This document shows positions 1 to 7,499 of a stretch of 7,499 bases of DNA, one piece after another. Every line of letters begins with the position of its first letter. Positions within the stretch are counted from its first letter, which is position 1. The stretch lies in the IMG/VR virus record IMGVR_UViG_2671180433_000015; one strand, 5' to 3'. Under the pieces are notes generated by a model that saw only the letters and a list, made by a program, of their open reading frames with translations, searched no databases and was not told the origin of the DNA. The translations under genes and the position numbers were made by a program. The stretch is from a virus. Lineage: Duplodnaviria; Heunggongvirae; Uroviricota; Caudoviricetes.

Positions 1-648
1 CTTCAGTATGCTGGTGGCGGTCTGTTCTCCCGGTATGATGTCGCTTTCACGGTATACGGAGCGGATTTTTTCCGCCGGTAATCCCAGAGAACGACGCGCT
101 ACTGCCTCAGGTAGTGCATCCACCACCTGATTGCAGGCCGCCCACCAGGATAATTCGGCCAGCGATAACTCCCTCTCCTGCGTACCGCTTATTGCGTGAC
201 CGATGACGTCAATCATCCATGCTGACAGGTTTTGATGAGCAAGTTGCTCGAGTGATTCGGATGTCTGGTCACGCAGCTGGTTGTCACAGTGCCAGCACAA
301 CACCATCGCGCCGGTACCGTAACGGTGAATGACTGTTTCGCTGTGATGATAATCGCCGTGTGGCCACTGGCAGGATTTCACGTGACGTAATAACCAGTCA
401 GACAGTGCACCTGCACCACCTGCTGCACGAATTACCCGCTCATCGCTGAAAAATGGTAGTAATGTTTTATCCTCAGCCAACGGCTGGCTAACGGCTGCAA
501 CGACGCCGGACGGAAGACTGCGCATGTTTTTGGGTTCCGGTTCCACCAATATTCTGCCGTTATGGAATACTGACATTGATTCACGGCCTGGCTTAACGAT
601 AACCAGACTGAGTTCCGGTACCAGAACAGGTCGAAGTAATACCCGCAC
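1..648 (-). CDS. Phage protein with Cys/His (HNH- or zinc-finger-like) motif; partial, C-terminus lies beyond the window start
   Basis: Minus-strand frame is open from 723 to position 1; it is absent from the ORF track, probably because it is truncated by the window edge. GTG at 648-646 lies 5 nt after a GGAGG Shine-Dalgarno and 1 nt after the TAA stop (652-650) of the upstream gene. Alternative in-frame ATGs at 576 and 525 have no convincing SD. Hand translation gives ...GGAGALSDWLLRHVKSCQWPHGDYHHSETVIHRYGTGAMVLCWHCDNQLRDQ..., a Cys/His cluster resembling HNH or Rap/NinG-type phage nuclease motifs. Family assignment is tentative. Confidence 0.5.
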   Translation of the reverse strand, partial: MRVLLRPVLVPELSLVIVKPGRESMSVFHNGRILVEPEPKNMRSLPSGVVAAVSQPLAEDKTLLPFFSDERVIRAAGGAGALSDWLLRHVKSCQWPHGDYHHSETVIHRYGTGAMVLCWHCDNQLRDQTSESLEQLAHQNLSAWMIDVIGHAISGTQERELSLAELSWWAACNQVVDALPEAVARRSLGLPAEKIRSVYRESDIIPGEQTATSILK

Positions 649-649
649 G

Positions 650-922
650 TTACCTCCAGATGCGTTGCTGATATGTGCGGGACGGACGCGGCGGGCGTTC
701 GGAATAAGGGAGCCTGACGGAAATTATCCAGTGTCGGAAGTCAGGATTGAGGCCTTTCTGAAACTGGTATCCACGTCTGCGGTAATTCTGAATCAGCCAC
801 TCGGCCTGTTCTTCAGTGCATTGGTCATGCTGGTACCAGTCATATTTGAATGCGTGAGAGCGCCGTCCGTGTCTGCTGGCAGGGTCGGCATCAGAATTGT
901 GGTGTTTGGTATTGTGCGCCAT
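650..922 (-). CDS. Small basic phage protein (about 90 aa), function unknown
   Basis: Part of track ORF 650..1003. The track start at 1003 is a TTG inside the U-tract of the upstream terminator, so the first ATG (922-920, MAHNTKHH...) is preferred. Arg-rich C-terminus. Stop TAA 652-650 is embedded in the SD of the next gene. Confidence 0.4.
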   Translation of the reverse strand: MAHNTKHHNSDADPASRHGRRSHAFKYDWYQHDQCTEEQAEWLIQNYRRRGYQFQKGLNPDFRHWIISVRLPYSERPPRPSRTYQQRIWR

Positions 923-990
923 CGGTTGTCTCTGCTGGCGCAGCAGGTGCCAGTTGTTCAGGCTGGCGTGTGGATTGTAAACCAGAATGC

Positions 991-1020
991 CAGGAAAAAA
1001 CAAAACCCGCGAAGCGGGTT
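991..1020 (-). terminator. Rho-independent terminator downstream of the restriction gene
   Basis: 7-bp stem AACCCGC (1004-1010) / GCGGGTT (1014-1020) with GAA loop. On the minus-strand transcript it is followed by UUGUUUUUUCC (complement of 991-1003). It sits about 70 nt after the endonuclease stop at 1093. Confidence 0.6.
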
Positions 1021-1092
1021 AGTAAAAATGTACTGAAGTCAATGACGTGCCATCACAGTTAAAATATGACAGACTCTATTTACGTAGAGATG

Positions 1093-1971
1093 TCAGACTG
1101 CAAGATCCAAGGGAAGATCAGAAATATCCTTTAATCTTTTACCATTAACCATCACGGAAAGCATGTCAGCTGCATCGCTGAGCCCCAGTATTTCAACTGC
1201 TGATATAAGTTCATAAAGCGCAAAATGATACACGCAATCTATATCACCAGTACCAAGAGCAATAGACGCCAGACGACTTGGAGTAGGCTCAGCAGTAACA
1301 ACCATTACATGAGGGAGATTTCCCTTACGGTTGCGAATAAGATTTAATGCCTCAGAACGAGCATTCTGGGCCCGGTCGCTTCTTATTGTCCATTTGCAGG
1401 AAATACTTGCGTGTAATATTGGTTTCCCACCATTCGAACTCCTGAGAGCTGACATGCGGGTAACAGAATCATCCACCAGTAATTCAGGACTGTTGATAAC
1501 TTGATCACATTCAGGTTCTCTTTCAACAATAATATCTGGTGAAATCGTATAATCACTCCCCAGTGCAGCAGCTAGCTGAGGATTACTTTTTGCAGCACTA
1601 TCCAATGCTATAAGATGGGCATATTGTTCATATTTAGCTATCTCTAATCTGTTTCTACCAGAAACCTGATGTACATTCCATTTTCCAGGGCGTAAGTGGC
1701 TGAGTTTAAAAAAGGTTTTTTCTATAAACTCTGCGCAGATACTCTCAAACTGATTACCAGATGTTTGCCCTGCAACACGTTCACCAATCGTTTCAGCCTG
1801 CAAGAAGCGAGCAATTTCTCTTGCTATAGCTTTACTGTTTTTGTTACTGCTATCTGCGTTACTAACAACTCCGGCAGTATTAATTGTGAGCGTATTCAGT
1901 AACAATTGGGCATGAAACTCCTTTCTGGCTTCAGCAAAACCAACTATGCTGTCAACCAAATCTCCATTCAT
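1093..1971 (-). CDS. Putative Type II restriction endonuclease, NgoMIV/Cfr10I-like class (292 aa)
   Basis: Track ORF 1093..2106 trimmed to ATG 1971-1969 (MNGDLVDS...). That start lies 13 nt after the methyltransferase TGA stop (1987-1985) and 9 nt after a GAAGGA SD. Motifs, numbered from this start: SPD146, S191-C-K193, E208, and R197-S-D199-R200 four residues after the lysine. This matches the non-classical PD...SxK...E active site plus R-x-D-R recognition element as I recall it for NgoMIV, Cfr10I, Bse634I and SgrAI. Co-oriented with and immediately downstream of a C5-methyltransferase. Confidence 0.6.
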   Translation of the reverse strand: MNGDLVDSIVGFAEARKEFHAQLLLNTLTINTAGVVSNADSSNKNSKAIAREIARFLQAETIGERVAGQTSGNQFESICAEFIEKTFFKLSHLRPGKWNVHQVSGRNRLEIAKYEQYAHLIALDSAAKSNPQLAAALGSDYTISPDIIVEREPECDQVINSPELLVDDSVTRMSALRSSNGGKPILHASISCKWTIRSDRAQNARSEALNLIRNRKGNLPHVMVVTAEPTPSRLASIALGTGDIDCVYHFALYELISAVEILGLSDAADMLSVMVNGKRLKDISDLPLDLAV

Positions 1972-1984
1972 TTCTGGATTTCCT

Positions 1985-3109
1985 TCAGGCTGCTTGACTA
2001 TTCTTACTGATGTTATTCTTATACCGTCCCTGCAAAACTCCATACACATATTGTGCGATTTTTGCCGCAAATAGCGGTGGAACAGCATTCCCGATCTGCT
2101 TTGCAATCTCAGTTTTTGAACCGGTAAAAATGAAATTATCAGGAAAAGACATTAATCTCGCTGCCTCACGATGAGTTATTGGCCGATCCTCTTCCGGATG
2201 TAAATATCGCCCTTTCTCCGGTTTGAAAAACTCAGTACGAATCGTTACTGAAGGTTTGTCCCACCACAGACGTCCAAACAAATCGGTCCCTCCAGATTTC
2301 TTTTTTAGCCAGCACGCCGGGGTTATATCAGGTCTTTTTTTCTGTAAATCGAAACGGTTACCTCCTGGTGGAACCGCTTTATATCGCTCCAGAGAAACAG
2401 GAGTGGGATTACGCCCAAAATGTAAGTTCAGCGGAGGAAGTTCATTACGAATATCAGTTCCAACAGGAGCAGGTAAGTCACCAATTGCATCACGCGTACA
2501 GACCCATTCAGGCAAAGCGACATCCTTATCAGGGGAACGATGCGTTGGTGCTGGCGGGAACGCCGGAATACTATGCACATCGAAGAGTTCTCGTTTGATA
2601 CCGATTGCTATCGTTCGTTTTCTTGTCTGAGGTACTCCATAGTCAGCAGTATTCAACACCATTGGATTAAGCAGAATAAAGCCCATGGATTTCGCTCTAA
2701 ACGTAATGTCCGCAAACTCATCGCTTATCAGCAATCCGGGGACATTTTCCATGACGAACATACAAGCCCTTGAACGCTCAATGACATCCATATAAGGCTC
2801 CCACAATGCTCTTCGGTGATCACCATAACGATTCTTATTCAATAAACTGAATCCCTGACACGGGGGGCCACCTATGACCACATCAGCCTCAGGAACAGTA
2901 TTGCTGGATGCCCACTCCTCAATATTTGCCTGAACTCCATGCAAACCAAAATTGGCATTGTAGGTATTTATAGCTGCAGCATTATTATCAATAGCAAGGA
3001 TACTTTCAAAGTAGTCAGACATCTCTCCATGAAGAAAACCATAAGATAATCCACCTGCCCCACAAAAGAGGTCTATCACTCTGAATTTATTTAATTCTTT
3101 CATCCGCAT
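1985..3109 (-). CDS. DNA (cytosine-5)-methyltransferase (374 aa)
   Basis: Canonical m5C-MTase motifs in order: I DLFCGAGGLSYGF (FxGxGG), IV GGPPCQGFS (catalytic PCQ), VI ENVPGL (ENV), VIII QTRKR, IX REAARLMSFPDNFIF, X QIGNAVPP. About 150 aa between motifs VIII and IX forms the variable target-recognition domain. ATG at 3109 has a GAGG SD 7 nt upstream. No N-terminal HTH extension. Confidence 0.9.
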   Translation of the reverse strand: MRMKELNKFRVIDLFCGAGGLSYGFLHGEMSDYFESILAIDNNAAAINTYNANFGLHGVQANIEEWASSNTVPEADVVIGGPPCQGFSLLNKNRYGDHRRALWEPYMDVIERSRACMFVMENVPGLLISDEFADITFRAKSMGFILLNPMVLNTADYGVPQTRKRTIAIGIKRELFDVHSIPAFPPAPTHRSPDKDVALPEWVCTRDAIGDLPAPVGTDIRNELPPLNLHFGRNPTPVSLERYKAVPPGGNRFDLQKKRPDITPACWLKKKSGGTDLFGRLWWDKPSVTIRTEFFKPEKGRYLHPEEDRPITHREAARLMSFPDNFIFTGSKTEIAKQIGNAVPPLFAAKIAQYVYGVLQGRYKNNISKNSQAA

Positions 3110-3192
3110 CCATATGCCTCAGATTAATGTTGAGCGTCTTACAGGACGCGTAATGTTAACTGGGGCTTTCTCTATCTGCCTTTTGGTGTTCA

Positions 3193-3217
3193 TGCCTGAG
3201 GCAGACAGCCTCAGGCA
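3193..3217. other. Perfect 9-bp inverted repeat (stem-loop) between the QueH-like gene and the methyltransferase gene
   Basis: TGCCTGAGG (3193-3201), 7-nt loop CAGACAG, CCTCAGGCA (3209-3217). GC-rich stem. No U-tract follows on either strand, so it is not a canonical intrinsic terminator. Confidence 0.5.
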
Positions 3218-3226
3218 CCCGCAGCA

Positions 3227-3255
3227 ATTCTACTTAACTCACGTCACCTCGCCAA
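3227..3255 (-). promoter_or_regulatory. Candidate sigma70 promoter for the R-M cassette
   Basis: Minus-strand reading: -35 TTGGCG (3255-3250), 17-nt spacer, -10 TAGAAT (3232-3227). This would place the inverted repeat at about +3 to +27 of the transcript. Sequence match only. Confidence 0.25.
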
Positions 3256-3287
3256 TATGAAATCAATCAGAAAGGTGATCCATAAAA

Positions 3288-3974
3288 TCACTCCTTCTCT
3301 TCTTTTCCGTAGTGGAGTTGGCCAATTTTGATAAGAGGGCGTCCCTGAGATTTGCGGTGTAGATTGGTATCGCGCAGAGAATACACACAGCCACAATATT
3401 CCTGCTGATAGAATTTTTCGCGCTTGCTGATTTCAATCATACGGGACGAGCCGCCCTGCTTGCGCCAGTTATAATCCCAGTACACCATACCCGGATAATG
3501 CGCAACAGCTCGCCGCCCACACTCGTTAACCTGCTGCATATTTTTCCAGCGTGAAATGCCCAGTGAACTACTGATCACACTGAAACCATTTTCAGCAGCG
3601 TACAACGCTGTCCGCTCAAAACGCATGTCAAAACACATGGTACAACGGATCCCCCTCTCAGGCTCCCATTCCATTCCTTTGGCACGTTCAAACCAGTTGT
3701 CGGTGTCGTAATCAGCATCGATAAACGGCACGCCGTGTTGTTCAGCAAAGCGAATATTTTCATCCTTACGAATTAAATACTCTTTCTGAGGATGAATGTT
3801 CGGGTTGTAGAAAAAGATGGTGTAGTCGATTCCCGAGGCCTGAAGCGCCTCCATCACTTCACCGGAACATGGAGCACAGCAAGAGTGCAGTAGTAGTTTG
3901 TTTGCCCCGTTTGGAAGCTCCAATTTAGGCCGTTTGAAATCAGCAATAGTCATAAATATTTTTATTGGGGTCAT
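3288..3974 (-). CDS. QueH-like epoxyqueuosine reductase family protein (DUF208), Fe-S protein
   Basis: 228-aa track ORF. N-terminal [15 protein letters not shown] motif and C-terminal EYCGCVYS cysteines fit the conserved Cys pattern of DUF208/QueH as I recall it. An alternative ATG at 3953 would give MTIADF...; neither start has a strong SD. Confidence 0.6.
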
Positions 3975-4127
3975 GAAAATAGCACAGAGTGTAGCATCAG
4001 AGCAGGGCTATCGGGAATATATGTCTAAATCTGGTAATATCTGGTTTTGACGCAAAGCGGACAACCACGCTGGCTCTACCCTGCGCCATGAAAATGTCAA
4101 TTCACATCTGAACTAATGCTCTTTAAT

Positions 4128-4553
4128 CTAGTAACGTCTAAAATATCTAACATTTCCTTGATAAAATGCCAGTACACGCTGCATAGCTTCGCTCTTCCGG
4201 CACTCGCGACAGATTATATTCAGGCGCCTGTCGTAGCGGCGTATTTCGCCGTCTGGTAACGACCAGATAAGGTCCGGATCAACCACTGCAGGTTTCTTCA
4301 CCTTTGCCCTTGAGAGTTTTTTGCGAGCATTTTGCCAGTCCTTACGCGCCTGTTCAGACGGGAATAACCCGTAACCAGAGTTGTATACATCGCCACTGGC
4401 AACCAGCTCTCTGGCGAGAACACTCATCAGATATCTTGTCGCACCTGTCCTGGCTTCCAGTTGCCGCAACGTCTCGCGACCGCTCAGACGTACAAGTTCA
4501 ACAACCTGCCCTTTAATTTTTTCCCGCTCTTCTTGTGTAAATACTTTTGCCAT
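4128..4553 (-). CDS. Ren-like winged-helix phage protein (141 aa)
   Basis: Track ORF 4128..4568 starts at TTG; the ATG at 4553 has a GGAGG SD 7 nt upstream and lies 15 nt after the stop of the upstream gene. The C-terminal segment ICRECRKSEAMQRVLAFY and the internal ARTGAT resemble lambda Ren as I remember it (FKECRQSAAMKRVLAVY; ALTGAT). The family call is from memory and is low confidence. Confidence 0.5.
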   Translation of the reverse strand: MAKVFTQEEREKIKGQVVELVRLSGRETLRQLEARTGATRYLMSVLARELVASGDVYNSGYGLFPSEQARKDWQNARKKLSRAKVKKPAVVDPDLIWSLPDGEIRRYDRRLNIICRECRKSEAMQRVLAFYQGNVRYFRRY

Positions 4554-4568
4554 AAGCGCCTCCGGCAA

Positions 4569-5339
4569 TCACTTTTCCGATACAACACGGCGGGAAGAAT
4601 CAGTAATCTGTCGAACAATATCCCGGTGCTTGTTCAGCTCCCGCAGCGCGGCGCAGACTCGCTCCCACTTCTGAACATCACTTTTCGCCCTGCGCAGCGC
4701 CAGGTTTGCCCTGCGAAGGGACGGAAAAATCAGCTCATCTGCTTGCGTTTCGGTAAACGATGGCAACGGCTGCACAATGTCCGCCACAGTTTCTGTTTTA
4801 ATTTCTTCCTGTGTTGCGGCTTCCCGGACTGGTAACGCAGCACCTGCTGGCTGAGGAAAGGCCTTACCATCACTTTCCGTTACCAGCGCGGCTTTCGGCT
4901 CTGCTGGTAAATTATCGCCCGGCATGCAGTAACGAAATTTACCGTTCTGATTAACGCGTGCCAGCCGCCCCGTTGCGGTTACCACCGCCAGCGTGGAAGC
5001 AACCTTGCGAGTACTGACACCGAACTTACCCGCCAGTTCCTCACACGTTTTAGCCCCATCCTGACCGATAAACTCAATCATCATGTCTGCGGTAACTTTT
5101 TGTTCGACCTCCCCGGTCAGCATATCCTGTGCTTCAGATTTTACTGGCCGCTCTTCGGTTACCCGGGATTCACCTTCGCCAGCCAGAAACCAGGTGTGAC
5201 CAGTTTTATCAACGACGCCTTTTCTTTTGAGTTCCCACAGCTCGTTGACAGCCTCTTCACGACTGATTCCAAGGCGAGCTGCCACCACATGTGAAGAGGC
5301 TTTTTTCAGTGCTTTCAGTGCGTCAGATACGGTTTCCAT
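4569..5339 (-). CDS. Phage hypothetical protein with two winged-helix-like repeats (256 aa)
   Basis: ATG 5339 with GGAGG SD 8 nt upstream. Two internally similar segments (VVAARLGISREEAVNELWELKRKGVVDKTGHTWFLA and CEELAGKFGVSTRKVASTLAVVTATGRLARVNQNGKFRY) look like HTH or winged-helix DNA-binding units. Sits between the helicase loader and the Ren-like gene. Confidence 0.7.
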   Translation of the reverse strand: METVSDALKALKKASSHVVAARLGISREEAVNELWELKRKGVVDKTGHTWFLAGEGESRVTEERPVKSEAQDMLTGEVEQKVTADMMIEFIGQDGAKTCEELAGKFGVSTRKVASTLAVVTATGRLARVNQNGKFRYCMPGDNLPAEPKAALVTESDGKAFPQPAGAALPVREAATQEEIKTETVADIVQPLPSFTETQADELIFPSLRRANLALRRAKSDVQKWERVCAALRELNKHRDIVRQITDSSRRVVSEK

Positions 5340-5360
5340 TAAAATTTCCTCCGGACAAAA

Positions 5361-6107
5361 TTACTTCACAACCCTCATATTGCTGACATTTGGACGCCAG
5401 CTATCCCAGTTAAACGTCACCCATCGACCACCGTTCATGGTCATGCGGTCCATAATCCTCTCACCAAGAAGCGTACTCATTGCGGCATGATTCAGGTTTG
5501 TTAACATCCCGACACTGCACAGTGATGCTGTCCGGCGATCAATTATCTGGTGCAATACCACCTGCTCGTTTTTCGTCTCCCGCTGAACGCCTATTTCATC
5601 CAGGACCAGCAAATCAACCCCGCAAAGCTCCTGTAAAAATTTTTCCCCGGATTTGCCGTTGTCGTAGCTGTCATGCAACACGCTCATGACGTCAGACACG
5701 GTGACGATAATCACGCTGCGCCCCTTCACCATCAGCCGGTTGCCCATCGCCGCTGCAAGGTGATTTTTCCCGGTGCCGGTTTTACCGCTGAACACAAAAT
5801 TCGTGCACCCGGTCATCAGTTCGTCAGCTATGGATTTGGCCTGGCTCAGCGCGTATTTTTGCCCGTCGTTCTGCACCTGATAATTTGCAAACGAGCATTT
5901 GCTGTGCAGAGGCTGGATGCCCGAACGATTCAGGATTTTTTCCACCCGCAACTGGCGATTCTGGCGGTTAATCTCCTCGCTGCGTTTTCGTCCTTCAGCA
6001 AGTTGCCATTCCCGCCACTCCTCCACCGTCCGGTACGGTGGAACCGACCCCTGTGGTGCAAGTCTGCGAATACGTTCAAGAACCCCAACTGCCGCAATGT
6101 TTTTCAT
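5361..6107 (-). CDS. DnaC-family replicative helicase loader (AAA+ ATPase, IstB-like), 248 aa
   Basis: Walker A GKTGTGKNHLAAA and Walker B DLLVLDEIG. Extended collinear similarity to E. coli DnaC as I recall it (NRSGI.PLH..CSF.NY, TGMLTN, LLGER.MDRM, FNWDS.R). ATG 6107 lies 6 nt after the stop of the upstream initiator gene. Confidence 0.9.
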   Translation of the reverse strand: MKNIAAVGVLERIRRLAPQGSVPPYRTVEEWREWQLAEGRKRSEEINRQNRQLRVEKILNRSGIQPLHSKCSFANYQVQNDGQKYALSQAKSIADELMTGCTNFVFSGKTGTGKNHLAAAMGNRLMVKGRSVIIVTVSDVMSVLHDSYDNGKSGEKFLQELCGVDLLVLDEIGVQRETKNEQVVLHQIIDRRTASLCSVGMLTNLNHAAMSTLLGERIMDRMTMNGGRWVTFNWDSWRPNVSNMRVVK

Positions 6108-6113
6108 GACACG

Positions 6114-7076
6114 TCACCCCCTGAATCCCGGCGGTATTTCAGTGTCCGGTTCAGAAATGTGATTCACGCAACGCTGCGCAGGCGAACGCCCCAGGCGGAT
6201 AACCAGTTCATCCCATTTTTCCCGGAGTTTTGCCGGACTCATGATGTTTTTTACCCAGAACGAATCCCGCTGGAGACGCCCAAACATTTCACAAATTTGT
6301 CTGTGAGTTCTGCCATCCAGCATCCGCATTGTGCGAACGTCATTGGCCCATGCTGTCCAGTTGGGTTCTTTCGGTCTAGTGATCTCGCCATCATAGCTGG
6401 CCGCCTGCTCGTAAAGACTCACGATTCGTCCCCAGATCCACTGTGCGCACACCAAATCTTCCTGACTTCCCCACTGGCGTTTTTTCGCACTGAACACAAC
6501 CGCGTCAGGGTGTCGGGTTAAAAAATCCTGTTCAGCCGTCTGCGGGTCCGGTTGCGAAGCGTCCGGACAAGAAGATCTTTTATCTGACGGATCAGGTTTT
6601 AATACTGACGGATCGGGGTCAATCATCGCCCCCCTAATCGGCAGTTTTTTATCAACAGTTGATCCATCAAAATTTGACGGGTCAACCGTTGAGGGGGCAA
6701 TATTTGACGGGTCAACTGTTAACGGGTCATTTTTTGCCGGGCTAATTTTTCTTTTCGGTTTATATGACTCACGCGCCGCCGCCGCAGCTGCTTCGAGTTT
6801 TTCCACATTAAGCCGATAGATATTGCTTACATTACGCCCACCGACCTTACGCTCTTCCTTCGTCAGCCAGCCCTCTTTCGCCAGTTCTGCAATAGCCGAT
6901 TTCACTGTGGATTCACTTCTTGCACCGATCTGACGCCGGATAGTTTCAATGGCAGGCCATGACACGCCCTCGTCATTGCTGTAGTCTGCAAGACGGGCCA
7001 TAACCGCCACCCTGGATAAGATCATGCCGGTGAAGGCGCACCCTTCCCAGACAAGACCATGAAGCTTGCTGCTCAT
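6114..7076 (-). CDS. Phage replication initiator (lambda O-like, N-terminal HTH) with DnaT-like C-terminal tail, 320 aa
   Basis: Track ORF 6114..7091 starts at GTG; the ATG at 7076 is preceded by a GGGGG SD. N-terminal HTH-like region (LSRVAVMARLADYSNDEGVSWPAIETIRRQIGARSESTVKSAIAELAKEGWL). Central Pro/Asp/Ser-rich repeats are encoded by the iteron array. C-terminus ...SEPDTEIPPGFRG resembles the C-terminus of E. coli DnaT as I recall it. Operon arrangement mirrors dnaT-dnaC. Confidence 0.85.
   Translation of the reverse strand: MSSKLHGLVWEGCAFTGMILSRVAVMARLADYSNDEGVSWPAIETIRRQIGARSESTVKSAIAELAKEGWLTKEERKVGGRNVSNIYRLNVEKLEAAAAAARESYKPKRKISPAKNDPLTVDPSNIAPSTVDPSNFDGSTVDKKLPIRGAMIDPDPSVLKPDPSDKRSSCPDASQPDPQTAEQDFLTRHPDAVVFSAKKRQWGSQEDLVCAQWIWGRIVSLYEQAASYDGEITRPKEPNWTAWANDVRTMRMLDGRTHRQICEMFGRLQRDSFWVKNIMSPAKLREKWDELVIRLGRSPAQRCVNHISEPDTEIPPGFRG
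6584..6770. repeat. Iteron array plus adjacent AT-rich tract inside the initiator gene (putative phage origin of replication)
   Basis: Direct repeats built on TGACGG(G/A)TCA at 6585, 6606, 6675 and 6705, plus a partial copy at 6722. Repeats 3 and 4 are near-identical 20-mers (TTTGACGGGTCAACCGTTGA and TTTGACGGGTCAACTGTTAA). A related palindromic TCAACAGTTGA lies at about 6652-6662. AT-rich stretch 6728-6770 (CATTTTTTGCCGGGCTAATTTTTCTTTTCGGTTTATATGACTC). Confidence 0.55.
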
Positions 7077-7098
7077 AAAACCCCCGAACACCGTGCTT

Positions 7099-7308
7099 TT
7101 AGTGCATCACCACAGCATTCCCTGCCGGGCCGCCGCGATTCATCTGGTCATACAAAACAACCGCTGACGCAACAAAATCATCGACATCCTTCACCAGCCG
7201 ATCCCTCCGTTCGACGATCTCACGGTAATATTCAGAACTGTGGCTGCGCATACGGGCCACCAGCAAAGGCGGCATCGCCTTTTCGATCGCCGGTAACAGA
7301 GCCTGCAT
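7099..7308 (-). CDS. Small hypothetical protein (69 aa) immediately upstream of the initiator gene
   Basis: Track ORF; ATG at 7308, stop 22 nt before the initiator ATG. No clear SD. The same frame stays open up to the stop of the upstream gene (7411-7413) with no alternative ATG/GTG start. Confidence 0.4.
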   Translation of the reverse strand: MQALLPAIEKAMPPLLVARMRSHSSEYYREIVERRDRLVKDVDDFVASAVVLYDQMNRGGPAGNAVVMH

Positions 7309-7410
7309 TTTTTCAACAGCATCAGGGGTGTCTTTCTCTACCCAGCGGAAAATTTTCTGGGTATTGCGAGCCAGGGCTTCCGGATGGCTGTCGTCGGTGA
7401 TGCTGCCAAC

Positions 7411-7499
7411 TTACTGATTTAGTGTATGATGGTGTTTTTGAGGTGCTCCAGTGGCTTCTGTTTCTATCAGCTGTCCCTCCTGTTCAGCTACTGACGGGG
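7411..7499 (-). CDS. C-terminal end of an unidentified gene; partial, start lies beyond the window end
   Basis: Only one minus-strand frame is open across 7414-7499 (...PSVAEQEGQLIETEATGAPQKHHHTLNQ, stop TAA 7413-7411). No other support. Confidence 0.25.
   Translation of the reverse strand, partial: PSVAEQEGQLIETEATGAPQKHHHTLNQ

Follow-up and report, generated by a model that had tools for sequence, protein, structure and literature searches.

An NgoMIV-family restriction-modification cassette in the place of a hok/sok unit in a lambdoid prophage

A methyltransferase gene and an NgoMIV-family nuclease gene

We analysed a 7,499-nt stretch of DNA (the window) from the IMG/VR virus record IMGVR_UViG_2671180433_000015, a member of the Caudoviricetes, which carries a type II restriction-modification (R-M) cassette composed of a DNA cytosine-5 methyltransferase gene (M) and a restriction endonuclease gene (R). 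Both open reading frames (ORFs) were recovered on the minus strand, exactly where a first-pass annotation made from the letters alone had placed them. M (3109..1985) encodes 374 aa from the ATG at 3109 and matches the profiles PF00145 (E = 4e-54) and TIGR00675 (dcm), both above threshold. The six methyltransferase motifs that the annotation had read in it are present in canonical order: I (FCGAGG, residue 15), IV (PCQGFS, 83), VI (ENV, 121), VIII (QTRKR, 161), IX (REAAR, 314) and X (GNAV, 340). Judged by these motifs and profiles, M is a complete 5-methylcytosine (m5C) methyltransferase. The start used by the NCBI annotation pipeline PGAP and by the relatives of the cassette is the ATG at 3103, two codons later, which gives a protein of 372 aa. 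Only about 8 residues stand ahead of motif I, hence M has no N-terminal helix-turn-helix (HTH) or other DNA-binding extension. The M stop codon (TGA, 1987..1985) is followed by a 13-nt spacer read from the sequence (AGGAAATCCAGAA; 1972..1984, minus strand) and by the ATG of R at 1971. An AAGGA motif resembling a Shine-Dalgarno (SD) sequence (1985..1981) overlaps the last base of the M stop and ends 9 nt before this ATG, in agreement with the earlier description of a co-oriented 292-aa ORF that starts 13 nt past M with an SD of its own. Control by a C protein, that is, by a small HTH controller gene with its C-box, finds no counterpart here, as the interval 1023..3115 holds no extra ORF or HTH domain.

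R (1093..1971, minus strand, 292 aa) aligns with the whole of the NgoMIV_restric profile PF09015 (423 bits for a cut-off of 23.2; E = 6e-127; profile positions 1-275 of 275) and with the REase_II model of PADLOC (E = 8e-126). When R was compared with the Protein Data Bank using phmmer, the sole sequence match was NgoMIV itself (1FIU/4ABT, E = 1e-118); Cfr10I, Bse634I and SgrAI were not among the matches at E <= 0.01. The two proteins are 65.8% identical across 281 aligned residues. In NgoMIV, the catalytic residues are Glu70, Asp140, Lys187 and Glu201, arranged in a PDX46-53KX13E motif, while recognition of the CCGG core falls to an RXDR motif and contact with the outer base pair to Gln63 (PMC2532715, PMC3413111). 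All four catalytic residues are kept in R, as E76, D146, K193 and E207, and so are the RXDR motif (R197-S-D199-R200) and the equivalent of Gln63 (Q69), the outer-base contact covered by this comparison. By sequence, R belongs to the type II restriction endonucleases of the NgoMIV family. The first-pass annotation had made its reading depend on nuclease homology in the downstream ORF, and this homology is that of a PD...K...E nuclease. From the 65.8% identity, R is predicted to cut G^CCGGC and, by homology, it is probably a type IIF tetramer acting on two sites. With a methyltransferase adjacent to the nuclease, on the same strand, and all catalytic motifs in place, the two genes form the complete, classical type II R-M pair that had been proposed.

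The order of genes around the pair (O-like, DnaC-like, DUF1627, DUF977, QueH, M, R, a 90-aa ORF, DUF968, RusA and Q) is that of a lambdoid prophage. The cassette therefore sits between the replication genes and the nin/Q-proximal genes, the cargo position assigned to it earlier.

The cassette stands inside a former hok/sok unit

Comparison of the window with intact hokD loci, and with two differently flanked copies of the cassette (contigs L096 and L120), delimits an imported segment of 2,093 bp (~1023..3115, minus strand). Its GC content is 42.7%, against 51-53% in the flanks. Upstream, homology to phage HannyBb and to the hokD locus of E. coli JNEC-KY177 runs through ...TTAATCTGAGGC (3116) and then stops; downstream, it resumes at about 1022, right at a terminator hairpin. 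What remains upstream is the truncated leader of a hok mRNA, from +1 to +105 (3116..3220, minus strand). The Rfam family RF01794 matches from 3220 downward (61 bits for a gathering score of 59, E = 9e-12), with a convincing alignment over only the first ~104 model positions, and the leader is about 93% identical to the hokW leader of HannyBb and the hokD leader of KY177 up to 3116. In HannyBb, the counterpart of window positions 3116-3285 lies directly upstream of the mokW/hokW toxin gene. The retained leader holds the 5' tac/metastable hairpin (inverted repeat at 3193-3217), the ucb element and the mok SD, GAGG (3120..3117). The upstream break thus falls between the mok SD and the mok start codon, with just 6 foreign nucleotides before the ATG at 3109, so that GAGG stands 7 nt upstream of this ATG, compared with 8 nt upstream of the mok ATG in intact loci. 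The hairpin of the leader is a perfect 10-bp inverted repeat (TGCCTGAGGC / GCCTCAGGCA), in which two would-be U.G pairs of the JNEC-KY177 hokD leader are C-G in the window. The other Rfam matches (sR55, isrK and sar) were all below their gathering scores and were treated as chance.

From the mok SD to the terminator, the window has no homology to the hok loci: the mok and hok ORFs, the Sok promoter and 5' tail, dcb and fbi are gone (element names and R1 coordinates after PMC9841398). On this evidence, hok/sok is a remnant at this locus and not a functional toxin-antitoxin locus. On the opposite strand, the antisense strand of the intact KY177 locus points to a remnant of the Sok gene (3116..3175, plus strand) that would consist of the 3' hairpin and U-rich tail and would lack the promoter and the 5' target-recognition tail; a consensus scan detected no promoter-like site on the plus strand at 3116..3175. 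At its other end, the cassette has a 3' untranslated segment of its own (1023..1092, minus strand), absent from hokD loci and present in L120. The same exchange is visible across complete E. coli genomes. In 640 of them, the two flanks lie close together and the cassette is absent, and the best 30 of these 640 all have hokD between QueH and the 90-aa ORF. Another 60 carry the R-M pair in place of hokD. We conclude that the cassette replaced the interior of a prophage hok/sok unit and left the promoter, leader and terminator of that unit in place and that, as GC content and junctions indicate, it is foreign DNA imported without a promoter of its own.

These junctions are exactly the same in about 25 IMG/VR prophage contigs. 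They are also identical in E. coli genomes of serotypes O157:H7, O111, O103 and O39, which align in one contiguous piece despite varying replication modules. Because identical junctions recur across so many contigs and several serotypes, the sequences indicate a single capture event followed by spread through prophage recombination. The two differently flanked copies bear on the same point. In L096, M-R follows cI-cro-cII-O-P and R is 89% identical to that of the window; in L120, R is 99% identical. Neither of them has a hok leader; the region upstream of M is their own, differs from that of the window and includes a promoter-like TTGATA-17-TATGGT. This confirms the cassette boundary and means that native upstream signals were lost in the window version. 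The upstream stretch shared by these copies is short (L120 2740-2870, L096 3700-3870), and TTGATA-17-TATGGT ends a few bases before the M start; it is probably the native promoter of the cassette and would give a very short leader. Downstream, L120 nonetheless has the terminator of hok type; this suggests that copies with different flanks recombined inside the cassette.

Expression signals inherited from hok/sok

Upstream of the leader, a consensus scan found a -35 box TTGGCG and a -10 box TAGAAT separated by a 17-nt spacer (3227..3255, minus strand), identical to the site that precedes hokD in JNEC-KY177; the RF01794 match begins about 7 nt past the -10 box, at 3220. The generic promoter scan did not rise above shuffled sequence (5 sites against 6.7 expected), and what makes the site credible is solely its identity as the conserved hok promoter, not its scan score. 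Downstream, the intrinsic terminator of the hok unit (AACCCGC-TTC-GCGGGTT followed by TTGTTTTTT; 1004..1020, minus strand) is the sole terminator-like site in 800..4200, and the same hairpin follows hokD in KY177 and hokW in HannyBb. The earlier annotation had bracketed the pair with a promoter and a terminator. Both exist, but they lie outside the coordinates it had given to the cassette and were inherited from the displaced hok unit rather than brought along by M-R. The predicted fold of the chimeric leader is stable (z = -3.2), which is mostly due to the inherited hok hairpins, as judged from a single minimum-free-energy structure. From this arrangement, M-R is likely to be transcribed in lysogens from the hok promoter.

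Occurrence in E. coli and neighbouring genes

Of 5,426 complete E. coli genomes, 60 contain a 2.25-kb region spanning the cassette at 99.9-100% identity; in these, PGAP labels the two genes "DNA cytosine methyltransferase" and "NgoMIV family type II restriction endonuclease". Among the carriers are O157:H7 (strain 9000 and the UK Z-series), O111:H11, O111:H8, O103:H2, O39:NM, the atypical enteropathogenic E. coli (EPEC) E110019 and commensal or extended-spectrum beta-lactamase (ESBL) isolates. The window itself is best matched by the O111:H11 strain 88-19539 (99.7% over 1-7395), and the adjoining replication module differs among carriers, as expected of mosaic lambdoid prophages. An identical R protein, WP_001012717.1, is annotated in E110019 and in strain 9000. 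The pair being already publicly annotated, its protein content is not new. The first-pass annotation had held its specificity and placement to be worth documenting. GCCGGC can be predicted for R, but M is of another lineage than M.NgoMIV, and documenting a pair already named by PGAP adds little. Literature searches for NgoMIV with E. coli and prophage, and for GCCGGC with O157, returned no description of the E. coli system.

Association with Shiga toxin (Stx) phages was considered and ruled out for the genomes examined, as stx genes are missing from the interval between Q and the lysis genes in the prophages of E110019 and strain 9000. Downstream of Q, where Stx phages have stx, lies a second and unrelated DNA-methyltransferase gene (L001 15979-17055; L095 13761-14819), so that these prophages encode two DNA methyltransferases. 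The carrier prophage of E110019 is defective: its portal and integrase genes are frameshifted and its large terminase gene has an internal stop (L001 1534-3955, 6168-7829 and 34623-35673), with the R-M cassette intact.

The genes that flank the hok position belong to the prophage backbone and not to the cassette. Upstream, QueH (epoxyqueuosine reductase; 3288..3974, minus strand; PF02677, E = 1e-65) adjoins hokD in genomes without the cassette. It is conserved in these lambdoid prophages, where it directly precedes the hok position, and has the accession WP_000150294.1 in E110019, strain 9000 and JNEC-KY177. Downstream, a 90-aa prophage ORF (650..922, minus strand), annotated by PGAP in L001, L003 and L095 and homologous to HannyBb, is followed by DUF968/YdfU. 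At the far end of the window, all close E. coli matches stop at 7395/7396; the last ~100 bases (7396-7499) lie across a mosaic breakpoint inside a ydaT-like gene.

Relatives of the cassette and selection between genera

The same arrangement, a 371-372-aa M and a 292-aa R separated by 13-14 nt, is found in Cronobacter and Pantoea chromosomes and in another lambdoid phage. Taken together, the copies of Cronobacter dublinensis, Pantoea spp., Cedecea davisae and the lambdoid phage contig L096 encode R proteins 83-89% and M proteins 72-80% identical to those of the window; in the Cronobacter, Pantoea and L096 copies, gene order and the 13-14-nt spacing are the same, but the upstream regions are their own and there is no hok leader. 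In Cedecea, M and R are probably paired, both genes being on a contig of equal length. At the nucleotide level, the Cronobacter and Pantoea copies are only 70-74% identical to the window and have a higher GC content (46-47%), and for these reasons they are not the direct donor. No direct donor was found among the relatives compared; L096, with R at 89%, sits in another lambdoid phage with a different junction.

The ratio of nonsynonymous to synonymous substitution rates (dN/dS) between Cronobacter and Pantoea amounts to 0.035 in R and 0.038 in M. In the comparison with E. coli, synonymous sites have reached saturation, with a proportion of nonsynonymous differences (pN) of just 0.11-0.15. The M-R unit is therefore under strong purifying selection between genera. 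The R family as a whole is very large: more than 8,000 database members are 76-89% identical to R, in Proteobacteria and beyond, and the family occurs on 17 plasmid records and 59 IMG/VR viral contigs. In the cultured phage genome collection, it is absent save for one metagenomic contig at 56% identity.

M is not the usual partner of an NgoMIV-type nuclease

M is only 21.5% identical to M.NgoMIV and is not its ortholog; it differs in motif IV (PCQ instead of PCP) and in length (372-374 aa against 312 aa). We surveyed 80 loci from other taxa, N. gonorrhoeae included, whose R is 61-78% identical to that of the window. In 71 of the 80, the methyltransferase directly upstream of R is 58-100% identical to M.NgoMIV, and these methyltransferases are 22-42% identical to the window M (best local match). 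Close relatives of M, 72-80% identical and 371-373 aa long, adjoin the 292-aa R in Cronobacter and Pantoea (M 77-80% there). More distant ones, 66-73% identical, occur in Edwardsiella tarda, Idiomarina and Salinicola, where they are followed by a 322-327-aa winged-helix and HNH protein (L092 4088-5068, L090 4105-5073 and L094 4147-5130). Searches with this HNH partner gave only generic HNH and winged-helix matches and weak matches to McrA and IscB HNH domains, with no named restriction enzyme and no solved structure beyond the HNH domain.

Whichever nuclease accompanies it, the M lineage shows strong conservation between motifs VIII and IX, in the target-recognition region, which suggests that it has a single specificity served by two unrelated nucleases. 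The HNH protein is accordingly a probable, as yet uncharacterised, restriction enzyme of the same specificity and a probable isoschizomer. Thus the R and M lineages have been re-paired: NgoMIV-family nucleases occur with two unrelated methyltransferases, and the M lineage occurs with two unrelated nucleases. For M, a GCCGGC specificity would follow from the conserved pairing, the conserved target-recognition region and purifying selection.

A model for the captured cassette

We are fairly confident in the following overall reading, in which an NgoMIV-family R-M pair of a lambdoid prophage is driven by captured hok signals and serves in defence as well as addiction. In the lysogen, the hok promoter, a part of the hok/sok module and not of the phage early operons, would produce one M-R transcript that starts at about 3220, carries the 105-nt hok leader and ends at the hok terminator (1020..1004). 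M would be translated by means of the former mok SD from the ATG at 3109, or from its native start at 3103, and R from its own AAGGA site. M would methylate a cytosine within GCCGGC, protecting the lysogen chromosome and the prophage DNA, while R, as a Mg2+-dependent PD...K...E nuclease, would cut unmodified incoming DNA at GCCGGC. Upon loss of the prophage, methylation would be diluted and the chromosome exposed to R, so that loss would be penalised as it is by hok/sok. One element-stabilising module would thereby have been swapped for another at the same position; both kinds have been linked to the stabilisation of their carrier element (PMC9841398; bioRxiv 10.1101/2025.08.07.668861).

Several points weigh against this reading. 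Firstly, we infer the use of the hok promoter by M-R from homology only, and the SD region is base-paired in the fold predicted for the chimeric leader, which makes translation efficiency uncertain. Secondly, with M at 21.5% identity to M.NgoMIV and its lineage also joined to an unrelated HNH nuclease, GCCGGC as the target of M is deduced only from the conserved pairing and the target-recognition region. Thirdly, GCCGGC is not depleted: the window has 0 sites for 1.9-2.7 expected, which is not significant, and the E110019 prophage has 11 for 12-20 expected. Site avoidance was for this reason discarded as support, there being no usable signal in either. Fourthly, the E. coli copies are 99-100% identical and hence uninformative on selection within E. 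coli. Lastly, some copies are damaged. The contigs L136 (2210-3084) and L137 (4001-4875) share a 1-nt deletion (the G of ATAGAAAAAACC) at R codon 84, with M intact; they are an inherited R-pseudogene lineage, decaying toward a solitary methyltransferase, and since the frameshift is common to two prophage contigs, R is dispensable in some lineages. In L098 (2864-3984), A7 has become A6 at M codon 257, which frameshifts M next to an R whose translation is 100% identical to that of the window. This is either a homopolymer sequencing error or the mark of a cell that tolerates R without this M; if real, it argues that R is weak or silent there.

Among the alternatives, the one that survives best, and which we still regard as unlikely, accepts a functional R-M system whose transcripts would come mainly, by read-through, from the early rightward operon of the phage, so that its expression would belong mostly to lytic growth or induction and not to the lysogen. 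M-R is indeed co-oriented with the upstream replication genes, DUF1627, DUF977 and QueH, the scan detected no terminator-like site between QueH and M, and the L096 and L120 cassettes likewise follow replication-module genes in the same orientation. However, the window retains an intact hok promoter, the same as in hok loci, and if the R-M system were expressed only upon induction, the lysogen chromosome could not be kept methylated before R appears. The promoter-like TTGATA-17-TATGGT of the other copies also suggests that independent expression is the norm.

A decaying or silent system, with M left as a solitary (orphan) methyltransferase, R non-functional or hardly expressed in the majority of carriers and no real restriction or addiction, appears quite unlikely to us. 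Such a state would fit the deletion shared by L136 and L137, the loss of the native upstream region, the defective portal, integrase and terminase genes of the E110019 carrier prophage and the L098 frameshift, which would be tolerable only if R were weak, another methyltransferase protected the cell or the base call were wrong. This last change, however, lies in a homopolymer, as is typical of sequencing errors. The R of the window is intact with all its catalytic residues, the identical protein is found in E110019 and strain 9000, and about 26 of 28 near-identical IMG/VR copies encode an uninterrupted R at 99-100% identity; the strong purifying selection on M-R between genera also speaks for a working system.

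We give a low probability to a specificity other than GCCGGC, with M acting on a shorter or degenerate site (such as CCGG or RCCGGY) or R having drifted within the CCGG family. Enzymes of this family combine one fold with differing outer-base rules (PMC3413111), and M is unrelated to M.NgoMIV beyond the shared motifs and comes from a lineage that also accompanies an HNH nuclease of unknown specificity. Yet R keeps the RSDR motif, the Gln63 equivalent and 65.8% full-length identity to NgoMIV, to which it is far closer than NgoMIV is to Cfr10I, Bse634I and SgrAI. A broader M recognising CCGG would still protect GCCGGC and leave the system working unchanged.

Very improbable, finally, is a control of M-R by hok/sok RNA, in which Sok RNAs of sibling prophages would pair with the retained target of ~44 nt, SD included, and lower translation or trigger decay by RNase III. 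The mok ribosome-binding site is the natural target region of the Sok antisense RNA and the Sok gene of the cassette itself has no promoter; carrier genomes have 1-6 additional partial matches to the cassette query, for the most part 90-95% identical, which are presumed hok-type leaders of other prophages. If such control were true, restriction and methylation levels, and with them prophage addiction, would be tied to which other prophages are present.

Significance and comparison with known systems

Captured hok signals driving an R-M pair in the lysogen remain our preferred reading. The R-M content is routine: the family exceeds 8,000 proteins, one member has a crystal structure, and the genes had already been named by the NCBI pipeline. 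What goes beyond the first-pass annotation is the replacement of hok, an M that is not the canonical partner and the existence of copies with a frameshifted R. The replacement of hok and the re-pairing of the M and R lineages deserve a note, although neither would surprise a specialist. The locus offers a base-resolved example of an R-M system that replaces hok/sok in a prophage and would take over its resident promoter, ribosome-binding site and terminator, a route by which phage accessory genes could be expressed without bringing signals of their own. Cattle and human lineages of O157:H7, O111 and O103 carry the cassette, which could affect their phage susceptibility, DNA uptake and genetic tractability, and M would add to carriers an m5C mark that PacBio methylomes miss.

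The closest characterised system is that of R.NgoMIV in Neisseria gonorrhoeae (1FIU/4ABT, type IIF, G^CCGGC). The compared catalytic and recognition residues, Glu70 included, are the same, and there too M precedes R on one strand with a short gap. The two systems differ in the length of R (292 aa, with a slightly longer N-terminus, against 286 in NgoMIV), in the methyltransferase and in location, the gonococcal genes being chromosomal and the cassette of the window lying in a prophage. NgoMIV-family systems are also carried by plasmids of Achromobacter, Paracoccus and Acidovorax and by small E. coli and Enterobacter plasmids, where R is 75-79% identical to that of the window. They too are cargo of a mobile element, but their vehicle is a plasmid and they have no hok context; in the chromosomal loci examined, R genes of like identity have an M.NgoMIV-type partner. 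As for the vehicle, the PstI-like R-M system of the Stx2 phage of E. coli O104:H4 is likewise a full type II system carried as lambdoid-prophage cargo, with enzymes of other families and another target. The hok/sok unit, lastly, has the same position in the prophage as the cassette, the same promoter and terminator, and the same leader over its first 105 nt, mok SD included. The killing agent differs: in hok/sok it is a membrane peptide restrained by an antisense RNA, whereas in the R-M cassette it would be a nuclease restrained by methylation.

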